Of a DNA stretch of 64,000 bases, positions 1 through 50,451 are shown piece by piece. Source of the stretch: a virus. Within the stretch, counting starts at the first letter, position 1, and each line of letters begins with the position of its first letter. The DNA is taken from positions 32,001 to 96,000 of IMG/VR virus record IMGVR_UViG_3300045988_076504. One strand, given 5' to 3'. The notes under the pieces were generated by a model. It saw nothing but the letters and a program-made list of their open reading frames with translations, ran no database searches and was not told where the DNA came from. The position numbers were made by a program, and so were the translations under genes.

Positions 1-114
1 ACAATATCCGGACAAGATCAACCAATAAAACAACTGTCCAGATCTGATTACAAATACTGTTATAGATCGTATTAGAAATTAGATCAGACATCATTTAAAT
101 TCACAATATCATGA
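1..114 (+). CDS. 3' end of an upstream late gene (partial at window edge)
   Basis: Frame 1 is open from nt 1, with one in-frame TAG at 73. TGA at 112-114 overlaps the next ATG (ATGA at 111-114). Confidence 0.35.
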
Positions 115-332
115 AATACTTAGAAGACGATATAAAATTCTTTTCGAGAGTTGTCTCAGGTTCACAAGACGGAGTAATTGCAAGCGCGGAACAGATAAAG
201 GATTACGATTGGAAAGGCGGAGAATTTTAGAATAATATAAATAGCTAGCTGTATTAGGAGATTGCAAAATTAAAAGAACTTGGTTTTGATATGACCCCTA
301 TAACAGAACAAGAAATATTAGAAGGATTATGA
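111..332 (+). CDS. Small hypothetical late protein (73 aa if TAG is sense)
   Basis: ATG at 111. In-frame TAGs at 228, 246 and 255. TGA at 330-332 overlaps the next ATG at 329 (ATGA). N-terminus MKYLEDDIK weakly resembles the fibre N-termini downstream. Confidence 0.45.
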
Positions 333-1426
333 AATTTTTAGATTTAAACGGTTTAAATACCCTTAAAAGTTATATAAAGAATACCTACGCTAAAAAGCCA
401 ACAATTATAACGCTGTCACAAATCGATACTTGTGGATATGAAAGTGCTTGGGATCTTGCTCAAGCTGCTAAAAATTCAGAAACAGGTTTAGTGTTCTATG
501 TTAGCGATATGTATTCTACACTTTATGTATTTGGTGAAAATCCTATACATGGCTGTGTACAAGTACTAGTTGGCAATTGTGTGATGGACACAAGCGATTC
601 CTCTATCAGTGTAGCACACAAAGATGGAATTTCTGCAACATATGTCAGAACATATCTTCACAAACCTGCCGCAATATATAATAAAGATGCAGGTTTTGAT
701 AGTACAACACAAGAATGGTCAGCGTGGATCATTAGAGAAACAAACGTTGCTACGAAAACCGGAACTGTCGCTAATAATATTAACGCAATTAAACAATCTC
801 TTGGTGATTTGTTATCGGTCGGTGTTGGAACAAATGTTGACAAAAATAAGCTTACACTCGGCTCGATGTATACAGGAGGCCTTTTAAAAGCACCCGGTAC
901 ATTAATCGATAAAGAAATTCCAGAAGCAAGTCAGACATGTAACGGTCTGATGTCAGTTGCTGATAAAATCAAACTTGACGGTTTGAGTGATGGTGGTAGC
1001 AGCACTGTAACAGATCCTACAAGCGTTGCAAAGATTGTAAGGTTTGACAGTGTTGTTACAGGAGATGTTACTATCGCAGCAGGATCTATAACAAGCGATA
1101 ATTGTGTTTTAGTATATCTTAAAGATAAGAACATATTTGCAATAAAAGATTAGGATAACGATACATATTATAATAACGGAGGTATTATCTTAAACGACAA
1201 TCCTGGAGTATGGGTATCGTCAGATAATTTCTCAGGACTTATTCCAAATTTTGAAGCAGGGTATAAAGCGATTCCGAATGCTATTTATGTCGACAAAGAT
1301 TATAAAATGTATGTTGGCGGTGTTATAAATAATTTGAAAGGTGGTGGTAAGTTCTGCCAGGCACTTAACGTAATAAACGTAATGAACATCCCAATAGATG
1401 AAATAAATACAACAGAAACTGAATAA
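329..1426 (+). CDS. Tail-fibre-like protein, paralog 1
   Basis: Track ORF 329-1153 continues in frame through TAG at 1151 to TAA at 1424. N-terminus is MKFLDLNGLNTLKSYIKN, and an internal NGLMSVADKIKLDGL motif is shared with the 2291 fibre. Confidence 0.7.
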
Positions 1427-1439
1427 TTAAAGATTAAAT

Positions 1440-2276
1440 ATGGCAAAATATTTAGATAGTGCTGGTCTTAGCACACTTGTGGGACAAATAAAAGAAAAAT
1501 ATTATCCAAAGACCAGCGGAAATAGTGATAGAAGTGATATTAATGCAATACTTAACGGGGATAAACCATTAGTTGCTCCACAACTTGTTACAAACGGATG
1601 GACTGTCACTAAGGTTGGCGGAAGTGCAGATACTACAGCTTATTCTGGAACTACCATTACTGTACCAACAGGATCATCAGTACAATATACAGGTACTTGG
1701 AAATGGACAACAACTGTAGGATATAAAGACCCTGAAACTGTCAGTGGTGCGTGGGGTTCTACTAAACCAGCATCCGGTACTGCAAGTAGTGTGTGTGCAG
1801 TACAAAGTAAAACTTCAACCACAGTAACTGATGCAACTATAGCACAAGTAACATTGACTGCTGCAAAAAAAGGATTGATGTTAAGCGGTCAGAAAGTAGT
1901 AAAAGCAAGTGGTAATGATAACACAAGTGCTTCTGCGATAGTTAAGTTTAGAGAGTGTGTTTATTGTGGAGCTGTTACATCTGCAACGCCTGATGGCAGT
2001 ACAATTGCAGCATTGGCAAATCCATTGTTGTTGGGTTCAAGACAAGCAACTATCACAGCAAATACAGATTCAAGCCACTACTATTGTTATGCATATCCAA
2101 CAAGTTTCGGCGAGCTTATTTCAATCATAGCAGATGGCGCAGATCCTATTAAAGATAACTTCAGAGCTGTGCAAACAGTAAATGTGAAAAACAAAGCAGG
2201 ACTTACAAAAGACTATTATGTATATGTAAGTGTTAATAAGGGTGCGTTTTCAAACAACTCACTCGCATTTAGATAA
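1440..2276 (+). CDS. Tail-fibre-like protein, paralog 2
   Basis: Intact ORF ending in TAA. N-terminus MAKYLDSAGLSTLVGQIKEKY matches the shared fibre anchor motif. Confidence 0.75.
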   Translation: MAKYLDSAGLSTLVGQIKEKYYPKTSGNSDRSDINAILNGDKPLVAPQLVTNGWTVTKVGGSADTTAYSGTTITVPTGSSVQYTGTWKWTTTVGYKDPETVSGAWGSTKPASGTASSVCAVQSKTSTTVTDATIAQVTLTAAKKGLMLSGQKVVKASGNDNTSASAIVKFRECVYCGAVTSATPDGSTIAALANPLLLGSRQATITANTDSSHYYCYAYPTSFGELISIIADGADPIKDNFRAVQTVNVKNKAGLTKDYYVYVSVNKGAFSNNSLAFR

Positions 2277-2290
2277 TTGGAGGATTAAAT

Positions 2291-4339
2291 ATGGCAAAAT
2301 TAGGACAAATTAAATCCGGAACAATGCGAGTTGGTAATACCACCGCATCCGGTTATGGTATTGTATATGCAGATGAGATTATAGGTCACAGAAGAGTAAA
2401 CACGTATGCTGACTTAGCAAATATTCCAGATTGGTCTTTGTATAATAAAGCAGGAGGTGAAACAACGTCTGCGGCTATAGGACAGTTATGGTATGTTACT
2501 ACTGGAGACACTTCTGGTCATTCTGCCGGTTTGTATCAGCTTACAGCTTGGTCAAACAATATAAAAACTTGGACGTTCTTTAAAAATGGAGCAAATGCAT
2601 CCAATACAACCTATACATTTGCAAATGGATCGAACGGTACGTTCACTGTAACGCCATCTGGAGGTTCTGCTCAAACGGTATCTATTGGTAAACCATCTAC
2701 TGCTGGAACAGCGGATCATGCAAAAACCGCAGATTCTGCTACAAAGGCTAATAGCGCTACATCAGCAACAAATGCTGGTCATGCTGCTAGCGCTGATAGT
2801 GCTACTAGTGCTACAAAAGCTACAAATGATGCAAACGGTAACAATATTGCAGGTACATATTTGACAAAAAATACAGCTTCTACTACATACGCAACAAAAA
2901 GCGAAATTTCAGCTCTTACATCTGCTTTGGTATATAGAGGTACTGTTGATGCTAAATACGCACTCCCTACAAAAAATGTAAAAATTGGAGATGTATATGT
3001 AGTTGCTGCAACTGGTACGTTTGCCGGTCAGACATGTGAACCTGGAGATATGATTATAGCTCAAACTGCAAGCAATGCTGAAGGTACACCAGCACCTACA
3101 TGGACTGTAGTGCAGACTAACATCAACGGTGCTGTAACGACTACTGAAAATCTTACTGCAAGCAGGTTGGTTGTTGGTAATAGTAATAAAAGTATAAGAG
3201 TTGCAACTGGTTCAGGTCTTGTTAAATTGACAGAAGGTGTTGTTAGTTACGATAACAATACATATTTAACAACAAGTAGTGCATCTAATACTTATGCTAC
3301 AAAAACTGCTCTTGATGGTAAAGTTGATAAGGTATCTGGTAAAGGATTAAGTACAAATGATTTTACTACTGCCGATAAAACTAAACTCGATGATCTTGGA
3401 TTGTCTGGGAATTCTTTTAATGATACATCTACTAATACTAAAGGTTTAACACTCAACTTAGTTGGTACCGACAGCAGTTACAATATACCAATTGTTAAAC
3501 CAAGCACTGATGCTTCGACTTACGGTCTTATGAGTGGTACTGACAAGAAGAAACTTGACAACATCGCAGAAGGTGCTAATAAGTATAGTCTTCCAACTGC
3601 CGCTAACGGTACACTTGGTGGTATCGCACTTGGATATGCAGAAACAGGTAGAAATTATGCTGTAAAATTAGACAGTAATAAAGCTTATGTTCATGTACCT
3701 TGGACAGATACTAATACTACTTATCCTTTAGCTTCTACATCCGCTAATGGTTTGATGTCTAGTACAGACAAAAACAAATTAAATGCTATACAAACTCCAG
3801 CAACTATAACAACATCATAGTTAGATTTGTGTGGGTATACCAATGCTGAATCTCTAGTTAACGCTGTAGCTAACCAAAAAGACGGGCTTTCTTATTTCGT
3901 AACCGATCAGAACGCAATTGTAACATTGCAAACAGACAACGGAAAGCATGCTATAATCCAAACGATAAGAACAGCTACTGAATTAAATGATTTGTGGGAA
4001 TTTGCCACAGGCACAACGTCGTCTCATACAGATGGAGTTCTTTTTACATACTAGAGATTCTATCCAATAGGTGGAACTTACTCTACTGATACCCGCAATA
4101 AGTGGACAAAGTGGGCTATAATAGACGTAGATACAATGTACACTACAAACAGGTCAAATATGAATAGTGTTTACAAATAGCTGGGTAAACAACTACTTAG
4201 TAATTTGAGCGTGGATACGAATGGAAAAATCACATTCAGTTCTACTTATTCCGGAACAAGTACAGCAGGAATCAAATCACAATCTAAAGATATATTAACA
4301 CCTATACTAAAATCGGAAATTACTACATTATTTAATTGA
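2291..4339 (+). CDS. Tail fibre with Ser/Ala/Thr-rich repeat stalk
   Basis: ORFs 2291-3820 and 3827-4054 plus downstream sequence share frame 2. They are joined by TAGs at 3818, 4052 and 4178, and TGA is at 4337. The stalk has SATxA-type repeats, and there are three GL(S/M)xxDxxKLDxx repeats. Confidence 0.75.
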
Positions 4340-4345
4340 TAAAAT

Positions 4346-4993
4346 ATGGCACAATATTTAGATTTAAACGGATTGCGTACGGTTGTAGACAATATAAAAA
4401 ACATTAAATCCCCTGTTTGTTTACCTACTTACGATAGGCGTTCCTCCTTATCATCCACAGCAACTGTGAAAAATGAAACTGCCTCCTCATATACACTTAT
4501 TATGTATGATACGAGGAGCTTGAGGTTTTTAGCATTGTCGAATGGAGCATTTTACACCAGGTGGGATTCTAATTCGAAACATTTGAGTTACGATTGTTAT
4601 GGAACACCATTGGACACTGGTGTACAACCTAAATTTGGATATTTATATGCAAATGTATTTGATAATACATTATAGTTAGGTGGAACAAATGGACAACTTA
4701 AAAATGTGGCAAATTATACAGCCCCAACAACATGGACTACTGTAACAACGTCTCCTATAAGTGGTGGGGATACAATTACAAAAATGGAAAAAAGCGATAC
4801 TGGAAATGGTACATATTTGTGGAGAATAACTGTAAAAAATCCAAATGCGGACGCTTGTGACTTTCTCGTATAGGATGCTGCCGGCAATAATTTCATACAG
4901 TATGGTATATATTTAGAAGGTAAGCAGTCTGGTACGTTTACAATAGAATTACCAAAAACAACTCCAAATGACCGTTTTTACGTCACAACATAA
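4346..4993 (+). CDS. Tail-fibre-like protein, paralog 3
   Basis: N-terminus MAQYLDLNGLRTVVDNIKNI. In-frame TAGs at 4673 and 4871. TAA at 4991. Confidence 0.65.
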
Positions 4994-5050
4994 TATATTT
5001 TAACATATTTTATCAAAAAATTGTACATTGATGCAACCATAAACGCATAA

Positions 5051-5140
5051 ATTTCCGTTATGGAAATATCAGCGGTAGCACTTAGCTACCAGATTTATAG
5101 GTGTGCGAACACCTGTAAATCCCTATAACTTGCAAGTTAT
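5051..5140 (+). other. Cluster of four consecutive stem-loops in a 285-nt intergenic gap
   Basis: ATTTCC-GTTAT-GGAAAT (5051-5067). GGTAGC-ACTTA-GCTACC (5074-5090). AGGTGT-GCGA-ACACCT (5099-5114, GNRA loop, extendable to about 9 bp). 16-nt palindrome ATAACTTGCAAGTTAT (5125-5140). Confidence 0.5.
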
Positions 5141-5276
5141 TTTATGAAGGTTCATAGCCATTTTTTAATTAATCCTTTTATTTCTTTTAACTACGGAAGA
5201 TAAAATAACTGAGAAGGTTTATTGTTACGATCATCCGAGCGCATACAATAACCACGACGCTCTTGCTATAGCAGCT

Positions 5277-6026
5277 ATGGCAGGACGCAATAATGAAGAT
5301 CCGTTGGCAATGGCATCTATGATGAATAACAACTAGTGGATGAACAATCCTTTTATCTATTTGGTATTCCTCATGATGTTCGGTAATGGAGGTTTCTGGG
5401 GTAACCGTAATGGTCTCCAAGGAGCTGAAATTCAAGGACAGCTTGATTCTCTGCGTAATCAGATGGCAGATAACCAGAATAGCAACTTAATTATGGGAGC
5501 TATTCAAGGTAATAACTGTGATCTGAAAGCTCTTGCTTCAAATCTTAACTGTGATTTCAACCAGTTACAAAACTCTGTTTGTGCGGTACGTTCCGCAATT
5601 GAACAGGTTGGTGGAAAGATCGGTTATAGCGCAGAACGAGTAATCAATGCAGCTAACTTAGGTGATATGAATATAATTCAGCAACTTAAGGACTGCTGCT
5701 GCCAGACCCAACAGAACATTATCAAGATGGGTTATGAGCAGTAGCTCGCAACATGTAATCAGACTAACACTTTGCAGAATGCAATCCAGTATGTGGCAAC
5801 AGGCGTTGAACGAGGATTCGCTGCATCAAGTTTCCAGAACGCACAAGATAAATGTGATATAATCCGTTCTAGCCAGGATAATACTCAACGTATCATAGAT
5901 ACATTGAATAATCACTGGCAGTGTGATTTACAATAGAGGTATAATGATGCAAGACTAGAGCTCAGTCAGCAGAAACAGAATGCTACGTTAATCGCAGCTC
6001 TGAAACCTGCTGCAGCTGCTGCATAA
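5277..6026 (+). CDS. Hypothetical Gln/Asn/Cys-rich protein with hydrophobic N-terminal segment
   Basis: 5277 is the first in-frame ATG after a TAA at 5166. TAGs at 5334, 5742 and 5934. TAA at 6024. Has a FIYLVFLMMFGNGGFWG hydrophobic stretch and an Ala-rich C-terminus. Confidence 0.6.
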
Positions 6027-6038
6027 AATGGTTAATAG

Positions 6039-6080
6039 AAGGGAGAGGGACAATATCCCTTTCCCTTTTTTGTTTTATTT
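6039..6080 (+). terminator. Rho-independent terminator
   Basis: About 10-bp stem AGGGAGAGGG / CCCTTTCCCT (one G-U pair) with loop ACAATAT, followed by TTTTTTGTTTTATTT. It lies immediately after the TAA at 6024. Confidence 0.75.
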
Positions 6081-6093
6081 AAATTTACAAACT

Positions 6094-6579
6094 ATGTTGT
6101 TTAAAGATTTGAATCCAAATTATCCGATATTTATCTTCAATAAAACAGATATTACTGTACAGGAAGGTAAAGTTATAAACAAAGGTCTTCCGCATTTTGA
6201 TATGTTGCATAACACTACTTCTGCGATGGTTACAGATATAACTATCAAAGCTGGAGATGTTACAAAAACATATACATTTAAAGACGATACTGAAATAGGG
6301 TATGCTGAAAACCTTGTAATATCTCCAAATAGAGATGCTATATTACGTGAGGTAGAATCTATCAAAGATCAATCTGAACAAGTTCTTAACCAAATTGATC
6401 TACATAAAGCAACAGTAGAAAAATGTAACAAAGTATTGTCCGAGTTTAATCCGGTGTTTAAAGAGAAGAAAGAAACAGAACAACGTTTCTCAAAACTTGA
6501 ATCTTCTGTTGAAGATATTAAAACAATGATTTCAAATCTTTCAAACACTATAAACAATAATAACAATGGACAAGTCTAA
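6094..6579 (+). CDS. Hypothetical protein
   Basis: Start moved to ATG 6094 (MLFKDLNPNY), because the track start at 6028 lies inside the terminator hairpin. Ends in TAA. No TAG. Confidence 0.7.
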   Translation: MLFKDLNPNYPIFIFNKTDITVQEGKVINKGLPHFDMLHNTTSAMVTDITIKAGDVTKTYTFKDDTEIGYAENLVISPNRDAILREVESIKDQSEQVLNQIDLHKATVEKCNKVLSEFNPVFKEKKETEQRFSKLESSVEDIKTMISNLSNTINNNNNGQV

Positions 6580-7063
6580 AATGAAAATGCACATAGACAG
6601 AATATCTTCTTTAATGGAAGAGCATAGTGATTCTGAAGTAAAGTGCGCAATAGTAAAAACGATCATGTCTTATCTATCAAAATGTGATGATAATACAATA
6701 AATGAGTTGTTAGATTGTACTGAAGGTTTATGTAATTATAATAACTTCTTAACGCAAAAGGAAGCATATGAAATACTAAACAAGTTTAAAAACTCGAATG
6801 GTAGTTCTGGTGCCCCTTTAAACATGTCAATACTTGAAACGCTTAAAGATGAAAACAAGTGCATAGACGATGCTCCAAATTATAATAAATGGGCATTATA
6901 TGTCACAATGTGCAAGTTTGCATCGGATCAAGGAGAGGTTATTTCTAAACTTGTGAACAATGATCATAATGCTTATATTAGTGCTTGTTATGATATGTCT
7001 GTTGCTCAGCTTAAAGATGCTGACAGACCGAGATGGGTAAGACAATACTTTAATTTATTTTAA
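6566..7063 (+). CDS. Hypothetical protein
   Basis: Intact 165-aa ORF overlapping the preceding stop by 14 nt. Ends in TAA. Confidence 0.7.
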   Translation: MDKSKMKMHIDRISSLMEEHSDSEVKCAIVKTIMSYLSKCDDNTINELLDCTEGLCNYNNFLTQKEAYEILNKFKNSNGSSGAPLNMSILETLKDENKCIDDAPNYNKWALYVTMCKFASDQGEVISKLVNNDHNAYISACYDMSVAQLKDADRPRWVRQYFNLF

Positions 7064-7065
7064 AT

Positions 7066-9945
7066 ATGAAAATTCAAAAGAAGCAAGAAATTGAATTCTT
7101 TGGTACCAAAACAGGCAATGCTAATTCTATCGCTTTAGGCTACGCAACTGAGACTAAGAACTTCGGGGAAGTTGCTGTAGGTGTAATGAATAAGTCTACC
7201 GCTGCTAAAGATCCAAATAGCCCAAAAGGCGTTTGCGCTGATTCTGATGCCACTTTGTTCTCTGTTGGATGTGGTGGAAGCGGGGAACGAAAGAACGCGT
7301 TAGAAGTAAAAGGAGACGGCTCTGTGTTGATTTCTGGAGAGAATGGTGATATAAATGTTGCCGATAAAATTAAGCAGGCTCTCGATACAGATGCAAGCAT
7401 TGAACTTGTTAAATCTACAGAGAGTGATCTCCAGTATACACTTATGGTTAACAACGAGTCACGTGGAAGCATAAATATTCCAAAAGATCAATTCTTGAAG
7501 AATGTAACGTATGATACTGAAGCTAAACAGCTTGTATTTACGTTTGTAACACTTGATGAGGAAGAGCATGTAGAGAAAATATCTATCAACGATCTGAAAG
7601 ATGTCTATACAGCTGGTGATGGTATTAACATAGATAATAATGTAATATCTGCTGATTTTAGTTCTGTCATGACAGCTATATCTGATGAAAAGACTTAGAG
7701 GGAAACGACTGATAACGAAATAAAGTCTACATTAGATACTAAAGCTGATTTAAATAATGCCATAACTTATCGTTCAGATAATATAAGTGGATTATTTAAC
7801 AACGATGGAAACAAACAAGAATCTTATGGTTATCGTTGTGTGGATATAGGTTTTAATAATGTAAGAAACTTTAGCAATACTTGCATTTCTATAGGTAGCG
7901 ATAACAACCAACTTGAAAGAGGCGATAACACTATTTGTATGGGTACATCAAACACTTTTAACTATGGTAGTGTTTGTGTTGGAGACAATATAAAATCCAG
8001 ATATACTAATTCTATATATATTGGAAGTGGAATAACCACAAAACAAGACACCTTTGGTTCACTTAACACTATAATTGGCAGTTATGACGGTTTAAATGTT
8101 GCTTGTACACCGATTGGATTTATTAGCGTTGGGTTCGGACCTCGTGCCGACAAAGACGGAAAAGTACTTTATCAAATCGGAGCTCATCATGCTACAGATT
8201 ATAACAAAGATAATTATAATCTAGAAGAAACCCTTACTTCTGATTACGATCATAAAAAGTATATTTATGGTATTGGTGGTTATGATGGTACAGACCCTGT
8301 AACAACTAAAGCTAAATCTCTTCAAGAAGTCTTAGATACTAAAGCTAACAAAACAGATGTAAATAGTCGTTTAGATGATTTACAAAACCGTTGTTTTAAG
8401 TTTGGAATTGATGGTAGCATAGCAGCTCCATATAAAGGAATACCTACAGATGATTCAAAACTAAAGATTAAAACATTAAAGGATAATCAAGAATATACTT
8501 ATGTTAACGTAAGTGGTATTTTAGAGCCTGGAGACCCAGCTTATAATTGTATATATGATAAAACTCTCGATAAAACCATTAATATTATAACTAGTGATGA
8601 CTTTATTCCAACAAATAAAGAAGGTGATTTTTTTAAAACATCTGAATCTCTTGATTTAACTCACACATTTTATCTTGATAATGAAAAGACAGGTATTGTT
8701 GATAATCTTACTCAACTTACCATTGAAGAAACTAATGTTTTTGTAAATTTTCCGTATGTGGAAATTAATGATAATCTTAATGACAGTGAAGTACCACAAT
8801 ACATATATGATGCAACTGATAATAAATGGATAGAAGTTGTTGATACATTTTATACCAGTTCGTATGTTGGTTTTAATACAGAAGAACCATTAGATTTGAC
8901 ACATGAATTTTATAATAATGTTATAGGAAATTGGACAAGCGTTGGAGAACACTCTACAGCATTAGGTTGTTATGCGTATTCAGGTGGAAACGAATCTATA
9001 GCATTAGGATGTTTTACAACAGTAAACGGCAATGGTTCTACATGTTTAGGATATAATTCACAAGTAGATGGAGACGAATCTATTGTATTAGGATATAATT
9101 CATCATCAAAGGCGAGTTATAATGTAGTATTAGGACGAAAAATAAAATCTTACGCAGGTGCGTCTAATAGTGTAGCAATAGGAACTGGTCTAACTGTAAA
9201 TGGAAATCATGCTATCGGGATAGGAGATGGAATAGATTTAAATAATGATAGGAGTATAGCAATAGGAGATGTTAGCTATGTATCTGTTGGAGCTATAGCT
9301 ATTGGTAATAATAATAATGCAACAGGAGACACGTCTATAGCTATTGGAGATACCACTCGCTCAAAGGGTAACTATTCTACATGTATTGGTTATCGTGCAA
9401 ATGCAACCGGTCTTAATTCTTCAGCTTTAGGTGCTTATTCAAGTACTGGTGGAGATTATGCTATAGCTCTTGGTAAAAACATGTCAAATACTAAATCAAT
9501 ATTTGGTGTTGGTTTTAATGGTGTGAATGGTATCGATATGGATAGAGATAATTATGGTCTTTATCTTAAAGGTTTTGGTGGTTATGATGGAACTAATCTT
9601 GTAGTACCGAGTGGAAATACTGAAACTCTCAATCCTGGTATTAAAAGTGTTCAGCAAATAATTAATGAAAAAGCTGATGCTTCTGCTTATTATACTAAGA
9701 CTGAAATAGATGGTAAGGGTTATCTTACAGCTCACCAATCATTGGATGATTATGCTAAGAAAACTGAAATACCTAATGTTAGTACCAAAGCCGATCTCGT
9801 TGATGGTAAATTAAAAGCAGAACAATTACCTAAGCTCGATAATATTGCGGAAGCCACCACAACAGAAGACATGATAACCAAATTCAACGATTTACTTGCC
9901 GATTTGAAAGCTAAAGGTTATATGACTGCCGACATAACAACATAA
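7066..9945 (+). CDS. Large tail fibre/spike with YadA-head-like (Hep_Hag-type) repeats
   Basis: ORFs 7066-7698 and 7840-9945 are both frame 1, joined through a single TAG at 7696 (checked codon by codon). Has repeated SxAxG / SIAIGD / NATGxxSxAxG units like trimeric autotransporter head repeats. TAA at 9943. Confidence 0.75.
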
Positions 9946-9952
9946 TCATTTT

Positions 9953-10384
9953 ATGACATTTAATATTAATAATACCACTATCAAAGGGATATGTAATTTC
10001 GAAGGATTAGTACTTACCGCATATAAATGTCCAGCTGGAGTTTGGACAATTGGATATGGACATACTAAAGGAGTTAAAAAAGGACAAAAGATAACAAGAG
10101 AACAAGCTGTAGAATATTTAAAATAGGACGTTCAGCCTATTGTAAGCTACTTAAATAAGCTTGGCGTGTGCAAGACACAAGGTTAGTTCGGAGCTTTAGT
10201 TAGTTTTATATTCAATTTAGGCGTTGGTAATTTTTAGAAATCGACACTATTTAAATATATTAAACAAGGTAAATCTGACGACATGATATGTAATTAGTTC
10301 ATGCGTTGGACAAAAGGTGGCGGTAAAGTACTACCAGGATTAGTAAAACGAAGATAGTGGGAGTGTAACATGTGGAGAAGCTAA
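9953..10384 (+). CDS. Endolysin, GH24 (T4/P22-type) lysozyme
   Basis: Invisible in the standard-code track. With TAG as sense it reads MTFNINNTTIKGICNFEGLVLTAYKCPAGVWTIGYGHT...Q-FGALVSFIFNLG...GLVKRR-Q-WE. Shows the E-8aa-C/D-5aa-T catalytic spacing. Five in-frame TAGs, including 10124 and 10184. TAA at 10382. Confidence 0.9.
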
Positions 10385-10385
10385 T

Positions 10386-10901
10386 ATGAATAACATACTT
10401 ACTTAGATTGGATATATGTTCAATTCTATATGTGGACAAAGCCAATGGGCTAAGTTATGGCTTGGAGCGAGTGCGTTGCTCACAGCATACGTTGTCCCTA
10501 TAGTAGGATTATTAGTCGCTTGTTTTGCATTTACTACCGTAGATATGATCTATGGTATAAAAGTAGCAAAAAAGCTAGGACAAAAAATCACTAGTAAGAA
10601 AAATTGGCGTGGTACACTCTAGAAAATAAAGGATGAATTCACCATTATATTATTAGCACATTTGTTGGAATACGTTGTGCTAAACGATCAGATACCATTT
10701 GTACTAACAGGCGGCACTACAGTTATAATATGTTTAACTGAATTATGGTCTATTCTTGAGAATTTACATACATTGGATCCAAACGGTCCGTGGAGATCTT
10801 TAGGTATGTTTTTAAAGAAAAAAGGTGGTGAATATACAGGGATTGAAATTAATAATAAAAACGATGATACAAGCGATAATAACGTGGTTATTAAACCATA
10901 A
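10386..10901 (+). CDS. Holin (phage_holin_4-like, three hydrophobic segments)
   Basis: ORFs 10416-10622 and 10662-10901 share frame 0, joined by TAG at 10620. The ATG at 10386 is followed by TAG at 10404. Motifs: VDMIYGIKVAKKLGQKITSKK ... ELWSILENL. The start could instead be 10416. Confidence 0.7.
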
Positions 10902-11508
10902 AAGAATCGCTGTAGAAGCCTTTTTAAGCCTTTGTGTGACATTATCTGTTTTGTATGGAATAACTATACATAAACAGAATTAGAAGCTTACAGAGAGCTT
11001 AGAAATAGCTCAGAATAACATTGAAGCCTATTAGGGGTTGTTAAACAACTCTTAGTAGGCTTGTAATGTTTTATAGCTAGACATGTCTAAACTAAAAGAA
11101 TCTAACGATAAATTAATACAACAAATAGACAGTGTTCGTAAAGAAAATAAAATTTCTTCAAAAGGTTTAACTACAGCAGCAACCCAAACGTAGGTTTTAA
11201 ACGTTAATAGTAGTAAGGGGGTAGGGGGTTAGGTTATAGTTACTAAAGATACTATATATACAGATAGTATTAAATATAACGACTTAACCAATGTATATTA
11301 TAGTATAAGTAAAGACAGTATTTCTATAAGATTAGATGTACGTAATACTTAGTATCTATACATATATAAGAAAAAAGAATATAAAAATAAGAAAAACTTC
11401 TTTAAACGTTTGTTTACATTAGATTTCAAAAAGGTTACTAAGTACAAGTACAAAATAGTAAATACTAACGAATTACTTAAAGGGGAAGATATAAGAATTA
11501 TAGAATAA
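10864..11508 (+). CDS. Spanin-like protein (N-terminal TM plus coiled coil)
   Basis: ATG at 10864 overlaps the holin 3' end. Frame 1 was verified codon by codon to TAA at 11506. Eight in-frame TAGs at 10981, 11032, 11053, 11056, 11074, 11191, 11230 and 11350. TM segment IAVEAFLSLCVTLSVLYGITI is followed by heptad-like KLKESNDKLIQQIDSVRKEN. Confidence 0.55.
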
Positions 11509-11515
11509 CAATAAT

Positions 11516-12199
11516 ATGAAATTATTTACATTACGTAGTATAGTAGATGATGTTCTACTAATGATTAGAAATAATAATGTAAGTGAAAGTGAAGACTTCT
11601 CAAGAGCTTAGATAGCTCTATGGGTGTTAGCATATAAAGCTGCAATTCTTAAACGAAAACAAGAGAAAGATAAAGAAGCTGGAAAGAGCGATGAGGATGA
11701 AGATGACGATATAACGAAAACAATAGGTCCTGTCGAACTTGTAGACGAAGAGTCTTTAGACGGTACCTGTTTATATAGAAAAAGAACAAAGGATAAACTT
11801 CCAGAATTGTCAGGATCTAGCGATTGCAGTATTATAAGTGTACAGGACCAAGAAGGATGTCCGATACAAAAAATGAATGAGAAACGCAGACATTTTCACT
11901 TCTTTAGAAAATATACATTTGGAGAATTAGCATGGTGGTATGAAGACGAATACGTCTATTTAGAAGGTCTTACGGATCTAAATAGGTTACGTTATATATG
12001 GATCAGCGGAGTGTTTACAGGAGCTGATTCTAATGTAGACGAAGATGATGTAAAAATACCAGGGTGGATGATACCAGATATAAAACAAATGATTATTAAG
12101 AACGAGCTCGGGTTTATATTACAAATGCCTAGTGACGATGATAACAACAGTACTATAGCGAGTGTAAAGCCAAGAGGTCCTCAGCAAGATGAAAAATAA
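11516..12199 (+). CDS. Uncharacterised virion/structural protein
   Basis: ATG at 11516 is in frame with ORF 11624-12199 through TAG at 11609. Ends in TAA. Has an acidic central region. Confidence 0.6.
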
Positions 12200-12641
12200 A
12201 AAATCATACACTACAAAAGATATGTATAAAGCATATCATAAAATCAACAAAGAAGTACCATACGTTCGTTTTAAGCGCATTTTAGATAAATGTAATAAGA
12301 TTATCCTAGATGCGCTTTTAATGCGTTCAGAACTAATTAAAATGCCTTCTGGGTTAGGTTATATTTGTATATGTAAATATAAACCCAAGACATATACAGC
12401 TAAAAGTTTATCTGTAGATTATAAAGCATCTAAAGAATGTAACAAACGTATATATCACTTAAATGAACATTCCGATGGTTATAAATATCGTCTATTTTGG
12501 TCTAAGCAACCTAGAATTTTTCCAGATATATATAAATACAATTTAAGTCTTGTACGAACAAATAAACGAGCGTTGGCACAATTAATATTTAACAATCACG
12601 ACTATATAAATATAGATGATATACAAATATACAAAATGTGA
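12189..12641 (+). CDS. Small basic hypothetical protein (possibly HU/IHF-like as in crAss structural blocks)
   Basis: Intact 150-aa ORF overlapping the previous stop. Ends in TGA. The functional guess comes only from position and basic composition. Confidence 0.55.
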   Translation: MKNKKSYTTKDMYKAYHKINKEVPYVRFKRILDKCNKIILDALLMRSELIKMPSGLGYICICKYKPKTYTAKSLSVDYKASKECNKRIYHLNEHSDGYKYRLFWSKQPRIFPDIYKYNLSLVRTNKRALAQLIFNNHDYINIDDIQIYKM

Positions 12642-12660
12642 ATCTGTTATTGCAAAAATA

Positions 12661-13476
12661 ATGGCAGATTCTGACATGTCGGAAAAAAATATGAGAGTGA
12701 CCGACATTAGAGAATGGATATTTGAAGCTATCGAACACATAGGAGCTCCGATGTAGTATATACAAAAAGAGTCTGGTCAAGATGATTGCCCTGTATTTGA
12801 AATACATGAAAATCAAATACCAATACCAGACGATTTACATACATTAAATGGAGTTGCATATTCAAATAATCCAGACGGTCCTTGGATACCAGTCAGATCT
12901 GAAACAGCTACATTCAAAGGACCTAAAAGACACTCGCACCCGCATCACGAACCAGAGCAACCAATGAGGTACAAATTACCTACAACGCAAGCTCAATTTT
13001 ATGGTAACAATCTTACCAAATATGTCACAGACAGAATCCCAAATGAGGAGAATGATGTTACGATGTTTACAAAACCTGGATGGATTGTATTTAATAAACC
13101 GAAGGGATATGTAAAATTGTCATATAAAGCAATCGCAACTGATGAGCGAGGTTATCCATTAATACCAGATTTAGCATCGTATCAAGAAGCTGTATATTGG
13201 TATGTAATGTGGAAATTATCATTTAACAAATATTTAAAAGGAGAGCTTGGTGGAAGTGTACGTAATTCCCAACAGGTTTACTTTTATTTACAACAACAAT
13301 GGAATTTCTTTAGAAATTGTGCATATGCTGAAGCAATGATACCAACAGAAACAGACATGCGTTCTATCAAAAACGAATGGAATAAATTAATACCAGATTG
13401 GGACAGCGATGATAATTTCTTCAGCAGTGTCGGAAAGAGACAATTAAATTATAACGATTATTATTATGGATACTAA
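12661..13476 (+). CDS. Putative tail adaptor / tubular-protein-A-like protein
   Basis: ATG at 12661 is in frame with ORF 12964-13476 through TAG at 12754. Ends in TAA. The functional call is a weak resemblance plus synteny with the next gene. Confidence 0.5.
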
Positions 13477-16400
13477 TCAAAACAACACCTCAATTAATGT
13501 ATTCAACAAGGGTATGAATACAGATGCTTCATATTCTAATATACAAGAAGGTCAGTATTTATACGCTGAGAATCTTAGAAATTATATGCTAAATGGAGAC
13601 GCTGACGGCTTTAATACAAACCAATATGGATCTATACAGCCAATAGAGGGGTGTGACTGGGACAAACTTAATATTAAGCTTATTGATTTTGACGGAAACC
13701 CATTTCATATAGATTCTATTTTAGCTGCGGATACAATACGTAATATTGGTATTATAATAGTTAAAGGTTATGTAGAAGATGAAAATTCAGAACAGTAGTT
13801 AGAGCAATGGGCTGTTGCGCGTGCAACATTATCTGATGAAAAAATACTGGAAGACATTAAAATAATATACTTGTCTGGAACTGGTGTTAAAAATTAGTTA
13901 GACGGGGAAAAGGTGAGTATTGTATTAAAATACGAAACCGAAGAAAATATAAAACTGTATATCGCAGACGGTAAGCATTTCATGCTCGTATTGAATGTTG
14001 CTGAAGGCAATGATGGTCACAATGAAAAAATATCTGGGGATTTATCAAAAATAGAAAATATACAATGTGTATTTTTAAATCCTATAAAGTTTTTAGGTCT
14101 TACTACAGGAAATCTTACAGCAGGCGTTGTCCAATATGCTTATAGACTATATGATCAAAACGGATCTGCAAGTCCAATGTCTTGTATTACAAACACAATA
14201 CAGCTGGTACAAAATGAAGAAAACAGCGCTTCTAAAATAACAAAAGGTGGAAGTAAGGGTAAGTATATAGGATGTGGTGTAAAATTACAAATAAAATTAG
14301 AAAAGGAAGAAAACGCAGCATATAATCATATAGAAATATATAGAATATATTATGAAGAAGGAGGACAACTTCCGAAAGTTGGCGTAATATATAATAAAAA
14401 AATACCACAACTCGATACTTTAGACTATACTGATTTTGGTCAGGGATATTTGTCAGAAATAACAGTAGACGAATTTAACAACATATCTGGAATACATATC
14501 ATTCCGAAAGTATTGGAATCTAAAAACGGACGATTATTTGCAGCAAACATTAAAGATTCAGCATCATCACTAAACGATATTGCAAATCACTTTGACGCTA
14601 GAGCATTTAGGTTCAATAGGTAGAATAAAACAGTATATTCACAGTACTCCGATCAAAACACTACGTATTCAAAAACAAGAGAAGATATAGATAAAGAGTC
14701 TTATTATGATAGTAAAAATGATACGTCTGATTATTTTAACGAATACAACGATGTAACAAAAACTTTTAATATCGAAGATGATGTATGTAGACTTGGAGAA
14801 CTTACGGAAGATGGAACTGGTGCATATTACGGAGGATACGGTAAAAATATAAAGTGGAGGTTTGTAATAACAGAATTAGTTGGAGATTATTCTAATGTAG
14901 GAAACCCACATGGAACGCGTTAGACAGATCCAGAATTTTTATATGAAAACGTCGGAGCTGTCGGAAATACGTTGATAACAAATTATGAGGAAAGTAGTGA
15001 TGGAGTAAAACCGTTATCATATGACAACAAACTGAAATACGGGTATGTTATATAGAACCTCGAAACTGGTGATAATTCTATGGAATTGTAGGACGAGATT
15101 GATTATACAGATTTGTTTGAATCTTCAAATAAAACATGCACATATTCCAACTCATGTATATCTTATGGATTTAGATCTTTAAAAAGAGACGAACTGTATA
15201 GGTTTGGTATAGTATTGTATAACAAAAGAAACGAAGCTACGCCTGTTATGTGGATCGGTGATGTTAGAACACCTCCGTGTAATGAAAAATGTTTTGACAC
15301 ATATGAATCGAATGTACATAATACAAGTCTTGTTGTGAGACCTTTGGGTATTGAATTTAAAGTAGATCTAACAGATATAAATAAGTACATAGCTAAGAAC
15401 GATGAATACAACGAATCGGATCAAATAGTAGCGTATGAAATAGTACGTTGTTACAGATCGTCCAAAGATGTTTAGAATATAGCGCAAGGTGTATTATCAA
15501 GACCTGTAAGGAAAACAAAAAATGAGTACGCGGCAAATGTTAAGATAGATCCTGTGTATACACCAACAGGTATACTTACAACACAATCGTATTGGAATGG
15601 GGAATCCTGGGTATCACATAATGGATGTCTTAAAAACGTGTGGGACGCTGGTAAGCTAAATGATGCAAATGGATATGAAGCAGATAATTTCGACAACCGT
15701 ACATTGTTTTAGTTTATATGTCCAGAGGCTTGTTACAACGGAGATTACATGAAAAGCGTAATAGACAATACTAATTTGTCAATATAGCCGTTTTTTTATA
15801 TATTCGGTCAAGGTAAAGGTAAAACACATGCGTTAGATACTTGTAACGAGCTCATAACTGTTAGTGCCGACAAATAGGAGCGTCCGAAAATAAAAGATCA
15901 TATATTATTACAATCTTATTATTATACAAGTACAGCGTGGTCAAACAATCAACAACCACTACCTCCGTATGCTACATCTTTTGACATTGTAGATAAAGAG
16001 TCTATCAATATAAATGGAGCTGTTATTAAGCTAGATAGAAATCCGTATGTAGATTACGGGGTTGATTTAAAGACAGACCAATGGGATTATTTACCTGTAG
16101 ATCAGTTTGTATTACGCTCATATGAATCTGGATTTATAGACGATCCTATAAAACTTGTATTGTTTGCTCCGAGTGGAGAATCTAAACAAACATAGGAAAA
16201 GTACCCGAAATTAAAAGATAATCAACTGTTCTTCATATATGATTCTTACGGAAGAACAGCTATTAATTATTTTGAAAACAAAGCGTGTACAAGGAACGGT
16301 CAAGATCTTATCGTTGGTGGCGGATTATACAATAATCCTGATATTAAGAATTATGGTTTTAGAAGGTCTGTAGACAGTTATGAATATCTTACTTATAAAA

Positions 16401-18670
16401 CGCCAGAAAGACATTACAAAGGCGCTGCAAATGTCGGATCTCTTGGTATAATAGCAACACCTTCATATAAAAATTATATAAACTGTGTACAATATTGTTA
16501 CGGGTATTCTAAACTATACGAAAAGACACCATTCCTATATACAAGAGCGTACAGTAATTCAAATGAAACTACCAAATTATTTGGTGACGCAAATATTGTA
16601 AATTCATATAATATAAAAGGAACTGAGAAGTATAATGTTAAGGATGCAATTATAACAAACGCTCTCGGATGGGATGATATTTTTTCAGCAGACACTCAGA
16701 ACGGAGCAACTTCATGGTCGTATAAATATAATGATTACGTACAACCAATAGGTATATCGACATATTGTAATATTATAATGGGAGGAAAATATGGCGAATC
16801 TAAATATTTGACCAAAGACAAAGAGCAAGGGTTATTCAATAGCGAAGGAAAAACAAAAATATCATATGGAGACATGCCATCTGGATTAGTAGGTACTGCA
16901 GGAAATAGCATATTGATAAATCTGGAAAGCGACAATAATATATTATATAAGAATGTAGCTACTGATAGAATATTAAAGCATTCTAATCAAATGACATCGT
17001 TAAGCGATTATGAATTATGGTACAGCTACATATATGAACATCCAGCTACAGAGCAAAAAACTTTATATTCTACAACGTTTCCAAATGAGGTTACAGTAGA
17101 CGAGGCTATAAGCGAAGCTTCTAGAGACAAATCTTGTATATACGACAAGGTAGTACGTAAAGAAGAAGGAGAATAGGATTTGACTAGCTTTATTTATAGA
17201 TCTAGTATTGCTGGAACATATCTTTGTAACTTGAAGCAGAACACCGTTCCGTATAATGGTTATCAATACACTTCCAGATTAACAAATACGTATGTAAGTT
17301 GTGGAAATTATTATAAGTATAATCCGAATAAAAAGAAGATCGTATTTAACGGAGATTGTTATATTCAACCTTTTGAGTATGTGAGTGCTCATAAATATTA
17401 CTATAAAGATGTTGCCAGTCCTGTAACAACGTGTCTTATATACACATTCCCCGTGGAAACAAGTATAAACATGATAACATCGTACGGTAATGAATTTTCA
17501 AAGAATCTCGACAGTGAAGGATTGTGTACAAATTTACAACAACAACCATCAAATGTGAACGACATTTATGCGTAGGATGATCCTGAATATGTATACAATA
17601 CTGCGTATTCTCAACAATCAAATGCTCAAACACACGAGGTTATAGATATTAGCGATGATAGCAATACCTTATCTTGTGTAGATTATAGATGTTACTATTC
17701 AGAATTAAAATCGAATAACGAAAATATTGATAGTTGGCAAGTATTTAAACCTGCTAATTTTTTAGATGTTGACGATAGATACGGAGAAATAACCCATCTT
17801 AGAACATTTAACAATATATTAATGTTTTGGCAAGAGCACGCAACTGGACAGTTTAGTGTAAACGAGCGCAGTCAAATAAGCGATGATTCTGGAAAACCTA
17901 TAGTTCTTGGTGTTGGAGATGTATTGAGTAGATACGATTATATTGATTATACAACAGGTATGCATAAAGAACAATATTGCGATACGTGTTCTAATACATC
18001 TTTATATTGGTTTGATTCGCACAACAGTGAAATAAAAACATTATCTGGTAACGGGGTTGTACAACTAAATAAAACACACAACACGTAGAACATTATGCAC
18101 GAATATTCTGGAATATCTGCACCAGTTATGTTCTATGATAAAAAATATAACGAGGTTGTTTCTAAAGTATTACACGGAGATCCTGATAAATCTATCGCAT
18201 ATAATGAAATGATACAAGCATTTACATCTGTATACGATTTGGATTTCGAAAATCATCTCACGTTCGATAATAATATTTATTTGTTAAATCCATCGAAAGA
18301 AGGAAAATTAAACATCGGACATTGGAATAATGGAACTCAAAACGTTAATACAAAATTAAAATATGTTGTGAATGCTAATCCTGGAATAACCAAAGTATTT
18401 GATAATTAGGAAATCGTTACAGAACAATATAAAAACACCAATATTGAAGATTTTAAGTTTACGTGGTATACAGAAATATCCGGAGATACTACTTATGAAC
18501 AACCAAAGATAACAAACAGAGAAGGAAATTATAGATATTCGTTGCCGAGAGTTGGTTAGAATGCGGTCTATGGAAACAGATTGCGTGGAAAATACATGAT
18601 TGGCGAAATAGATAATATAATAACACCTATATCTTATATAATTACTAAATTTAGAAAATCATGTAGTTAA
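13466..18670 (+). CDS. Large tail protein (tubular-B/nozzle-like), about 1734 codons
   Basis: Seven track ORFs (13466, 13913, 15113, 16778, 17180, 17822, 18095) are all in frame 2. The gaps I read contain only TAG stops. TAA at 18668. N-terminus NVFNKGMNTDASYSNIQEGQYLYAENLRN resembles podovirus tubular protein B. Confidence 0.7.
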
Positions 18671-20721
18671 CAAATTATAAATATATAAAGAATCAAAAAC
18701 CGAGATATGGCGATGGCAAGTGGGATTGGAATGATTGGTATAATGATACGAAAGGTATTATATCTTTTAATCAACCGAGCGGAAATAAACATCTAACATG
18801 GGGTAACGTACCTGGTCTTGAGAGTGTTATTCGAAGCGATATACAAACAGCTAGTCCAAATCAATTAAATAATATGGTTAACAAACCAGAACATTCGGAA
18901 ATAAAACCAGGTTCTGAAAACGGAGGTTCATCTAAAGGCGTATCATCAACAGGATTATCTTGGGATCCTACATCAGCATTAATGTCTACAGCTAATTTTG
19001 TTGGTGATGTGTTTAGCGCATATAATAGACCTGTTGCAAACGCATCCGAACTTGCTTCTCAAGCTGGTACATCTTATGGAAATGTAGGAGGAGTACAATA
19101 TCAAAGACAGAATGCTGTTGACGTTGATCAGGCTGTATAGAATGCTAAAGAATAGGGGAACCAAGGAACAATGTCAACAGCTATGAGTGGTTTAAGTGCA
19201 GGAGCTGCTATAGGTTCTATAGGCGGACCACTCGGCGCAGGAATAGGTGCTGTTGTTGGAGGACTTGGTGGACTTTTATTTGGAAATAGCGCAAAACGTA
19301 GAGCTATGAAACGAGCACAACGTCAAGGTGAATTAGCACAAAGAATGGCTGTAAATACTAATATATTTAACAGAGCACAAGCTCAGTCAGATTTGATGAA
19401 ACAGCAATATATGTAGAAATACGGAAATACTCAAGGTGGTATACTGTATGCTAATAAAGGAAAAGATATACCGATGTATAATAGTGGTAAAGATAAAGTA
19501 TGGTCTCCTGACGGATATGTTTCTGGATTACACAATTCTTATGTAGGTAAAGGCGAAGTGATAGCCAACTTTAGCAGCGGCAAAGCTTCTGTAATCACAA
19601 AAGGTAAGGTTGGAGTTGATAATCAGAAATCATCGGTTAGTGAAAATGACGATAATGTAATACTCGGCAATGATGTTGATTTTACAACAGGAAGGACATT
19701 CGCAGAACAAGGTAGACCATATGCAGACAAATTACATTTCATAAACCAATCTGAAAAGAAGGTTGGAAAATACGGGAAATTGAGTTCTTTGAGTAAGAAT
19801 ACTCAAGATCTTTATAACAAACAAATAGGTTCTACTAAACAACAATTACTTGATGGTTTGAAAGATATTTCAGATAGACAAGCAGAACAACATAATTATG
19901 AGAACAACATGAAACAATATGCACATTTTGCGAATGGCAAATCTTCTGTATTCTATAATAAATGGTTACCATATATGCAAATGGCAGTACCTAGTCTAAC
20001 AGGTATTGCTGATGGAATCGGTAGATACATAAACGCTAACAAATAGAATATTGAAAATAGTGATACGTATTATAGAAATCCGTATGCACAACGTGCTCTA
20101 CAAGGTCTTGCAGGACTAAGATATGATGTAGATCCGGAGTTAAGACAATATGTGAATCAACAAGCTTATAATAAGTATGCAATAGATCAGCAAGGTGGTT
20201 TGACAGCTGGGCAGAAATATATAGCGAAGAATAGCTTGTATAATGATTATATAAATAATGTAGCTAAATTGTATGCAAACGCTAACAATATAAATAATCA
20301 ATACAAGGCACAGTATTATGATCAGCTTATGAAAGCTGGAGAAGCTGAAAGATCTGCTTTGACTGCAGCTAGACGTTACGATGCTGATATTTATGCTAAA
20401 GCTAGAGCTGCACAACTTAATATGGCAAATCAAGCACGTAAGGATGCACTTGAAAATCTTTATAGAATGGATAAGAGATTTGCAGATTATAAGATGTGGA
20501 AAGACACAAATAGGATTTACGAGCAGGATGTGGCTAATAAGAAACAAGATGTGCAAAATAGTTTTGATATAGCTAAAGAAACTGCTGCAAGTAATGAAAG
20601 AATCGCAAGAATGATGAATAATTCCAATCGTGTCGTTACAAATCCTATGTTTTATAGATTTACGCCAAGTAGTCTTTTTGATCAGTTAAACTTTAATTAT
20701 TCAAATTTCACGAAACGATGA
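18661..20721 (+). CDS. Internal virion/ejection-type protein with Gly-rich hydrophobic segment
   Basis: ORFs 18874, 19171, 19474 and 20152 are all in frame 1, joined by TAGs at 19138, about 19150, 19414 and 20044. TGA at 20719. Segment GLSAGAAIGSIGGPLGAGIGAVVGGLGGLLFG. The start is uncertain: ATG 18661 is followed immediately by a TAG, and the next ATG is 18874. Confidence 0.55.
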
Positions 20722-22442: not shown

Positions 22443-22444
22443 TT

Positions 22445-36162: not shown

Positions 36163-36163
36163 A
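35375..36163 (+). CDS. LAGLIDADG homing endonuclease (double-motif)
   Basis: ATG at 35375. Motif 1 is LLIAAALGDGCI and motif 2 is LALWFMDDGAIL. The in-frame TAG at 35468 separates motif 1 from the rest, so it must be read as sense. The TAG at 36128 is also read through, and TGA at 36161-36163 straddles the 3' splice site. Confidence 0.85.
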
Positions 36164-39465: not shown

Positions 39466-39474
39466 CAAATCATT

Positions 39475-46771: not shown

Positions 46772-46776
46772 AAGAT

Positions 46777-49474: not shown

Positions 49475-49530
49475 GACTTAAAAGTTCTTAGTTAGTAGTA
49501 AGAATGAGAGGACTCGAACCTCTTGATTAT

Positions 49531-50443: not shown

Positions 50444-50451
50444 ATCTTCTA

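Follow-up and report, generated by a model that had tools for sequence, protein, structure and literature searches.

Gut crAss-like phages that read the amber codon TAG as glutamine (Gln; genetic code 15) in their late and structural genes, an assignment reported by Peters et al. 2022 (PMC9523058) as validated by metaproteomics, have been described as favouring TAG over CAA/CAG in only four gene families (Borges et al., bioRxiv 10.1101/2021.08.26.457843; Nat Microbiol 2022). Two of the four encode a lysozyme-type amidase (p=6.8e-3) and a spanin (p=9e-6); the third is a 'tail tube' gene that lies 1.1 kilobases (kb) and two genes downstream of the spanin, and the fourth has no known function. 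The same authors proposed, within a suppressor-tRNA model, that TAG preference blocks premature lysis, and reported convergence in an unrelated TGA-recoded clade. Here we analyse a 64-kb stretch of a related virus (IMG/VR record IMGVR_UViG_3300045988_076504, positions 32,001 to 96,000; hereafter the window), in which a first-pass annotation had singled out a cassette of endolysin, holin and spanin-like genes as unusually dense in TAG. We consider it probable that this locus is a code-15, Suoliviridae-like lysis module in which the TAG excess is uneven and three ambers of the spanin-like gene, TAG57, TAG64 and TAG65, are fixed by a conserved mRNA hairpin.

The window shares with the published cassettes the phage order, the gene families, standard-code early genes and the model linking suppression to lysis timing. 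The 'tail tube' geometry matches too (11508 + 1.1 kb = 12616, the start of gene 12616-13476), although, unlike the published gene, this one is not TAG-rich (1/286 codons). Both the lysis-gene TAG pattern and the fail-safe hypothesis are already published for the same crAss-like gene families; in the text of Borges et al. the word 'hairpin' and tandem TAG have 0 occurrences, and it is our analysis of the window that shows the holin not to be enriched.

Judged by its sequence, the source phage belongs to the Crassvirales and lies closest to the Suoliviridae, its nearest annotated genomes being crAss-like phages of that family such as cr7_1, and its late genes appear to use code 15. Reading TAG through raised the total length of open reading frames (ORFs) of at least 100 amino acids (aa) from 14256 to 23945 aa. 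TAG was read as Gln because alignments of five genes with those of relatives contain 17 conserved Gln columns where TAG alternates with CAA or CAG, and because TAG78 and TAG115 of the endolysin line up with conserved Gln residues of solved lysozymes of glycoside hydrolase family 24 (GH24); the assignment for this phage thus comes from alignments. Trp or another non-Gln residue, hinted at by a TAG-free relative (L009; handles of this form denote individual related loci), was ruled out, since TAG swaps with CAA/CAG elsewhere and codon 57 of L009 is CAG. The late block, which holds tail-fibre-like genes, the lysis module, virion proteins and giant ORFs, is followed by an early block in the standard code whose products include a PDDEXK nuclease, a Toprim primase, an AAA_24 ATPase, a DnaB helicase and a sigma factor of the extracytoplasmic function (ECF) type. 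This layout is the known arrangement of TAG-to-Gln crAss-like phages.

To place the ambers in an evolutionary setting, we used 77 related IMG/VR loci, retrieved through the conserved gene 12616-13476. A homologue of the spanin-like gene was found in 75 of the 77, always directly upstream of the homologue of gene 11516-12199 (g11516). Codons 57, 64 and 65 of this gene are TAG in all 29 dereplicated recoded lineages, the only three columns of which this is true; counted over 74 relatives, TAG stands there in 70-72, whereas the remaining conserved Gln sites show a mixture of TAG, CAA and CAG. The three sit in the motif NNIEAYqGxxxxSqqAxNVL, and neighbouring codons are fixed as well: GCC in 27/28 lineages, although late genes use it for just 6% of their Ala residues, and TAT, GTT and TTA each in 28/29. 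The sole other codon-invariant Gln column, a CAA at 12624-12626 in gene 12189-12641 (29/29 lineages), falls within the 26-nucleotide (nt) overlap with the start of gene 12616-13476; because gene overlap accounts for that case, codon invariance marks a second constraint. An overlapping ORF does not supply this constraint at codons 57, 64 and 65, since no other-frame ORF of at least 30 aa covers 11017-11070 and both other plus-strand frames carry TAA there.

What holds the three TAGs constant is instead base pairing, as they are part of the stem of an mRNA hairpin. Its outer stem pairs 11017-11022 with 11065-11070 (AACAUU with AAUGUU), and its inner stem pairs 11025-11040 with 11046-11061 (GCCUAUUAGG... 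with ...YUAGUAGGC), and running on into an apical stem that is specific to the lineage. The pairing partner of TAG57 (11032-11034) is the TCY/TAG64 junction, and that of TAT56 and GCC55 is TAG64-TAG65-GC; the hairpin is followed by a conserved GTTTTA, of which TTA is unpaired. A T-to-C change (TAG to CAG) breaks an A-U pair, and compensation changes Tyr56 or makes Trp, so that synonymous drift is barred. TAG57, TAG64 and TAG65 are therefore locked by RNA structure together with coding constraints.

Thermodynamic and comparative data agree on this structure. With a minimum free energy of -29.9 kcal/mol (z=-7.0), the hairpin is the most stable 60-nt fold of the window on either strand (mean -7.3, standard deviation 3.6), and an RNAalifold consensus recovers it from 60 distinct sequences. 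In the extended stem, 91.5% of cells are paired, compared with 29-57% in slid controls, and double-sided changes number 67 versus 17 in shuffles, none of 500 shuffles reaching 67. Pair 30/66, which joins the third bases of Glu54 (GAA/GAG) and Ala66 (GCU/GCC), is AU in 44 sequences, GC in 14 and GU in two, is never broken, and has switched between AU and GC at least seven times on the tree. Compensation is also seen in L048, where GCC to GUC is accompanied by GGC to GAC. In the TAG-free relative L009 the hairpin persists as CAG/TGG/TGG, with a U-A pair converted to C-G, and L074, which has CAG, AGG and CAG at the three sites, shows the same U-A to C-G conversion. A G.U wobble at 36/60 is conserved in 57/60 sequences, G.U is frequent at five other pairs, and the sense fold is stronger than the antisense fold (-28.3 versus -17.8 kcal/mol; sense better in 60/60 sequences); the G.U pairs and the sense-strand advantage point to RNA rather than duplex DNA. 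The hairpin pattern occurs in at least 119 IMG/VR contigs, once per contig. No Rfam 15 family matches 11017-11070, and no description of this hairpin was found in the literature searched.

Other folds came to light alongside this one. A search with the L009-type pattern (GCCTAYCAGG...TGGTRGGC) for further standard-code relatives returned 66 matches which, beyond L009's contig, had variable spacing and lay mostly on contigs well below the size of crAss-like genomes; they are presumably chance matches. Another strong intragenic hairpin, at 39517-39572 (+; -25.1 kcal/mol), lies ~40 nt into the 2246-aa gene 39475-46215, and its stem includes an in-frame TAG at 39526.

The first-pass annotation had described a compact cassette with five TAGs in the endolysin and eight in the spanin-like gene, hidden from the standard-code ORF track. 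With only TAA and TGA as stops, this description is exact (Table 1), and in the standard code the region splits into ORFs of 31-79 aa. The holin starts 2 nt after the endolysin stop, and the spanin-like gene overlaps the 3' end of the holin by 38 nt. The endolysin, with TAG at codons 58, 78, 95, 115 and 135 of 143, is predicted to be a complete GH24 lysozyme. As the earlier reading had anticipated, with TAG translated as Gln it matches PF00959 essentially over its full length (profile 2-125 of 125, E=1.2e-44, 152 bits against a cut-off of 22.3), and it also matches phrog_7 (endolysin; E=8e-55) and GH24 lysozymes of the PDB (E=1.7e-26). Its putative catalytic triad, E17-X8-C26-X5-T32 in NFEGLVLTAYKCPAGVWTIGYG, was read from the translation and aligned to solved enzymes, and its hydropathy profile shows no transmembrane (TM) or other hydrophobic segment. 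The second product (171 codons, TAG at codons 7 and 79) is identified as a holin by matches to PF05105 Phage_holin_4_1 (E=5.5e-12, 46.2 bits against a curated cut-off of 22.2) and to the holin family phrog_199.

Table 1. Positions of the lysis genes, the conserved hairpin and other features of the window.
Feature	Position	Strand	Remarks
Late block, TAG = Gln	111..46215	+	22 genes; 143 in-frame TAGs in 15236 codons; stops all TAA or TGA
Canonical GC-rich hairpin	5092-5121	+	
Canonical GC-rich hairpin	6037-6069	+	terminator-like; within first 14 codons of ORF 6028-6579
Predicted GH24 (T4/lambda-type) endolysin, 143 aa	9953..10384	+	TAGs at 10124, 10184, 10235, 10295, 10355
Predicted holin, 171 aa	10386..10901	+	hydrophobic segments 24-60, 106-124; TAGs at 10404, 10620
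Spanin-like / LysB-FtsL-like protein, 214 aa	10864..11508	+	TAGs at 10981, 11032, 11053, 11056, 11074, 11191, 11230, 11350
Conserved sense-strand RNA hairpin, ~25 base pairs (bp)	11017..11070	+	inside spanin-like ORF, ~150 nt in
Canonical GC-rich hairpin	46257-46295		between convergent late and early blocks; looks bidirectional
Early/replication block, standard code	46271..63993	-	in-frame TAG essentially absent
tRNA-like gene	49531-49602	-	Rfam 36.6 bits; missed by ARAGORN; 6-nt anticodon loop UAUUAA; first acceptor pair mismatched
tRNA-Leu(UAA)	57054-57138	-	early block
ECF-type sigma-70 family factor (Sigma70_r2 + r4)	63050-63604	-	

The identity of the third gene is less firm: the endolysin and holin assignments of the first pass stood, whereas 'spanin-like' describes topology and position only. 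The gene has 214 codons, with TAG at codons 40, 57, 64, 65, 71, 110, 123 and 163, the tandem pair spanning 11053-11058. In favour of the label are the N-terminal TM segment and long helix of the product and the place of its gene directly after the holin. Hydropathy identifies a single TM segment at residues 15-35, and AlphaFold2 predicts a helix over residues 2-94 (predicted local distance difference test, pLDDT, 59-90), with pLDDT below 50 past residue 100 and a mean of 53. In topology, with a TM anchor at the N-terminus leading into a long periplasmic segment of helical or coiled-coil type, the protein recalls the inner-membrane (i-)spanins Rz of lambda and LysB of P2, and the position directly after holin and endolysin recalls two-component spanins in general. 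Unlike in Rz/LysB systems, however, no embedded, overlapping or adjacent lipoprotein (outer-membrane, o-spanin) ORF was found in the plus-strand frames of 9900-12700, and, unlike in Rz, the ~120 C-terminal residues look beta-rich. A unimolecular spanin of the T1 gp11 type, which would call for a lipoprotein signal at the N-terminus and a TM segment at the C-terminus, does not fit either: the one TM segment lies at the N-terminus, a lipobox is missing and conservation does not extend to Cys24. The match to the Rz-like spanin family phrog_739 was weak and sub-threshold (E=0.0083, residues 24-96 only), and no Pfam family scored above its cut-off in a profile search. Among 3499 database homologues, none of those listed is named; one homologue, P0002, is 96% identical and is encoded on a 98.7-kb contig. 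In other Suoliviridae the homologue, beside a gene annotated 'holin', is annotated 'lysis regulatory protein-like', and the annotators note similarity to LysB/FtsL. The protein possibly works like an i-spanin, although its membership among the spanins is not established, and it would be expected to have a role in lysis.

Enrichment of TAG in the pooled lysis genes is real but uneven. They contain 15 TAGs in 528 codons, compared with 128 in 14708 in the other 19 late genes (Fisher odds ratio 3.3, p=1.3e-4), a 3.3-fold excess per codon (p=1e-4); TAG makes up 50% of their Gln-like codons versus 18% elsewhere in the late genes (p=1.1e-4), and in-frame TAGs exceed off-frame TAGs with an odds ratio of 2.5 (p=0.008). 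When genes were tested singly, with control for Gln content and correction over 22 genes, the claim that the cassette is TAG-dense survived for the spanin-like gene (8/14 Gln-like codons, p=0.0015, Bonferroni 0.033), was marginal for the endolysin and failed for the holin (2/6, p=0.33). About 40% of the spanin-like gene's excess in this window is due to the hairpin TAGs, without which 5/11 Gln-like codons are TAG (p=0.039, nominal only and for the window alone). The tandem TAG-TAG that had seemed unusual is present, but such pairs are unremarkable in themselves, with three in the late genes against 1.3 expected. A supposedly TAG-free neighbour at 6094-7063 (970 nt) is not an ORF, although the real genes there, 6028-6579 and 6566-7063, do both have 0 TAG.

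Across relatives, the three genes diverge further. In the 27 dereplicated recoded lineages used for TAG density, which are related and not independent, the spanin-like gene exceeds its four downstream neighbours in 27/27 (median +2.2 percentage points), and in 21/27 once the hairpin TAGs are removed. A holin homologue is detectable in 36 loci, the window included; its TAG density is below that of neighbouring genes in 14/16 lineages, and it is TAG-free in several recoded relatives (for example, L007, L035, L037 and L063). An endolysin of this type occurs in only 11 of 78 loci, the window included, and its TAG richness is limited to the clade of the window, with 0-1 TAG in the homologues of L015-L017 and L029. 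The TAG excess is thus family-wide in the spanin-like gene, clade-specific in the endolysin and absent from the holin.

Two broader explanations of the excess were weighed against these data. One holds that a high TAG density throughout the cassette is adaptive in itself: as a fail-safe that depends on dosage, it would prevent lysis proteins from being made before suppressor activity has risen. The pooled enrichment, the excess of the spanin-like gene in 27/27 lineages and in 21/27 without its hairpin TAGs, the same conclusion reached by Borges et al. with convergence in a TGA-recoded clade, and the placement of a relative's suppressor tRNA in a nearly TAG-free block all speak for it. However, enrichment is missing from the holin, the gene that times lysis and whose product is lethal by itself; the endolysin excess is confined to one clade; the tandem pair is accounted for by RNA pairing; and a single TAG suffices for suppressor dependence, which every late gene of at least 300 codons already has. 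We regard this explanation as possible but doubtful. The fail-safe on lysis timing suggested in the first pass is consistent with the locus, yet it is not new, and the suggestion that the locus offers a clean test case did not hold: the holin is not enriched, the endolysin excess belongs to one clade, three of the eight spanin-like TAGs are hairpin-fixed and no suppressor tRNA was found in the window.

The other explanation, on which we place a similarly tentative value, is that the excess is non-adaptive: TAG would build up under weak selection for translation efficiency in low-abundance late proteins, or arrive with modules acquired horizontally from TAG-richer phages. TAG density does vary along the late genes, being lowest in the tail-fibre-like block 329-9945 (+; 10 TAGs in 3096 codons, 0.32%) and ~3-fold higher in late genes 11516-46215 (+; 115 in 11539, 1.0%; p=1e-4); the 959-aa gene 7066-9945 holds just one TAG. 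The endolysin behaves as a mobile module with a clade-specific TAG load, and the background TAG share among lineages ranges from 13% to 58%. Against this, the spanin-like gene is vertically inherited in fixed synteny and stands above its neighbours in every lineage at any background, and in nearby genes that are likewise short and probably of low abundance, TAG is rare (g12189, 0/150 codons; g11516, 1/227).

Since pairing is kept without TAG in the TAG-free relative, the hairpin has a function of its own. Most likely, it would serve as a brake that acts in cis on the transcript carrying the spanin-like gene and the genes downstream of it. Such a brake could work through a translational pause ~30 codons after the TM segment, through 3'-end formation or attenuation, or through RNase III-type processing, and the hairpin would be melted only by ribosomes able to decode TAG. 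As all three lysis genes carry TAG, none would be completed until an amber-suppressor tRNA is available, the timing of whose expression we infer. Long conserved sense-strand hairpins with an internal loop and a short U-run are also found among intrinsic terminators and attenuators and RNase III sites (T7 R sites); the present element differs in lying ~150 nt inside an ORF and in its AU-rich stem of ~25 bp and its U-tract of four U, two of them paired.

A more specific version of the brake is a suppressor-sensing switch. Without tRNA(CUA), ribosomes would halt at TAG57 in the 5' arm, the hairpin would form and the transcript would be terminated or cleaved, silencing the spanin-like and downstream virion genes; with suppressor, readthrough would keep the hairpin melted. 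All three invariant TAGs do lie in the stem, and a simple terminator scan of 9000-14000 flags this hairpin alone, for its 18-pair stem (6 G-C) and the tail GTAATGTTTT. The U-run GTTTTA is conserved although its TTA is unpaired, and the phage's ECF sigma factor suggests that host RNA polymerase serves part of its transcription programme. Nevertheless, L009 keeps the hairpin without any TAG, the tail past the inner stem is lineage-specific and in most lineages not U-rich, only UUUU being conserved, and a long AU-rich stem with a short U-tract is unlike the phage's clear terminators (6037-6069 and 46257-46295), which are short and GC-rich with T5 or longer. Of the three canonical hairpins in Table 1, two are followed by T-runs; the hairpins of distant subfamilies were not called terminators. 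We consider the switch unlikely, and give an equally low chance to the idea that the three-amber hairpin is an undescribed riboregulator tying the spanin-like gene, and possibly downstream virion genes, to the code switch; on that view no ribosome lacking tRNA(CUA) would get through the structure, which would then form and terminate or cleave the transcript or block translation.

That the palindrome works as DNA, by binding a protein or forming a cruciform, is very improbable: the inverted repeat is long and its sequence strongly conserved, but the wobble pairs and the sense-strand advantage described above, together with an apical stem that covaries without keeping its sequence, argue against it. 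A bacterial selenocysteine insertion sequence (SECIS), a pyrrolysine insertion sequence (PYLIS) and the T4 gene 60 take-off stem-loop are likewise stable stem-loops within an ORF that include or abut a reassigned or bypassed stop. Unlike at those sites, reassignment here is genome-wide and no local signal is needed; stops lie on both arms, and the stem is melted upon decoding. A SECIS/PYLIS-type local recoding signal was ruled out, as TAG is reassigned throughout the genome, the L009 hairpin is TAG-free and the loop is translated in frame. The reading of TAG57, TAG64 and TAG65 as genuine stops or as a site of bypass, so that 10864-11508 would be two genes or be joined by hopping as in T4 gene 60, is scarcely credible: stops within a stem-loop do recall the gene 60 take-off site and an ATG follows the hairpin at codon 74, but one frame is open through the hairpin in all 75 homologues (the only indel being 3 nt), the loop and A-x-N-V-L-x-L (TAG65 to Met74) keep their amino-acid sequence despite synonymous changes in the codons, no take-off and landing codons match, both other plus-strand frames carry TAA within the hairpin, and L009 has sense codons at all three sites.

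Several observations weigh against the explanation we prefer, that of an unevenly TAG-enriched lysis module with hairpin-fixed ambers. The endolysin excess (5/10 Gln-like codons, p=0.027) loses significance after correction over 22 genes, and the lineages compared share ancestry. AlphaFold2 gave no confident structure for the C-terminal half of the spanin-like protein, and no candidate o-spanin, sought as an ATG-initiated ORF of at least 25 aa with a lipobox-like motif, was found in the plus-strand frames of 9900-12700. The hairpin only loosely resembles canonical GC-rich terminators, and it is absent from the homologous site in more distant Suoliviridae subfamilies that keep the gene, so the spanin-like protein evidently does not need it to fulfil its role. 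Finally, ARAGORN and Rfam 15 detected no suppressor tRNA(CUA) in the 64-kb window, ~31 kb of the genome lying outside it.

The spanin-like homologues of Loutivirinae and Uncouvirinae (cr113_1 and cr125_1) contain other strong hairpins, at L201:1549-1596 and L204:1539-1587 (-20.8 and -25.0 kcal/mol). These lie at codons 13-38, just after the holin stop, and the simple scan calls neither a terminator.

A tRNA(CUA) did emerge in related IMG/VR contigs. The closest relative contig, IMGVR_UViG_3300045988_062669, encodes a tRNA-Gln-like one at L207:3185-3257 (-), orthologous to the tRNA(CUA) of cr7_1 that is annotated as tRNA-Gln; the same contig additionally encodes an ordinary tRNA-Gln(UUG) on the opposite strand ~9 kb away (12021-12092, +). 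The tRNA(CUA) is set among small, nearly TAG-free genes ~2 kb from the divergent early control region, and its position corresponds to a point ~13.6 kb before position 1 of the window, on the same strand as the late genes. A tRNA(CUA) at that position in the window's own phage would fit the published code-switch model. Within the window, ARAGORN reports tRNA-Leu(UAA) alone and Rfam 15 two tRNA matches with no others. The tRNA-like gene at 49531-49602, which overlaps a spurious 54-aa ORF and has the 6-nt anticodon loop UAUUAA, is not an obvious CUA suppressor; a UUA (ochre-type) anticodon is possible. Two of the 19 minus-strand early genes of at least 100 aa meet TAG as their first stop: ORF 57102-57761, upstream of tRNA-Leu(UAA), does so at 57234, where it probably truly ends, and a second early ORF at 60371.

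Close relatives also carry other RNA genes. A permuted gene resembling transfer-messenger RNA (tmRNA; Rfam RF04321, 64 bits) is found at L197:8463-8638 (+), ~1 kb past the equivalent of the window end, and cr7_1 has an annotated tmRNA (L200:20629-20985); tmRNA in stop-codon-recoding phages may merit attention. A group I intron (RF00028, 84.8 bits) lies at L194:5409-5718 (+), in the early region of a close relative.

TAG-rich lysis genes alone would be a further example of a published phenomenon and add little; what this analysis adds is a conserved hairpin that explains an invariant amber triplet. TAG counts in recoded phages cannot be equated directly with selection for a 'stop-codon gate': for the spanin family, whose published bias is the strongest, three codons that RNA base pairing holds fixed contribute a sizeable share of the signal, while the holin, the real lysis timer, is unbiased. 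The hairpin itself is a concrete and widespread element, carried by the IMG/VR contigs counted above within a protein family that has thousands of homologues. If it responds to suppressor availability, the correlative hypothesis linking code switch to lysis timing would become a defined mechanism, and a riboregulator of this kind, if true, would give the proposed lysis fail-safe a physical basis in place of codon counting.

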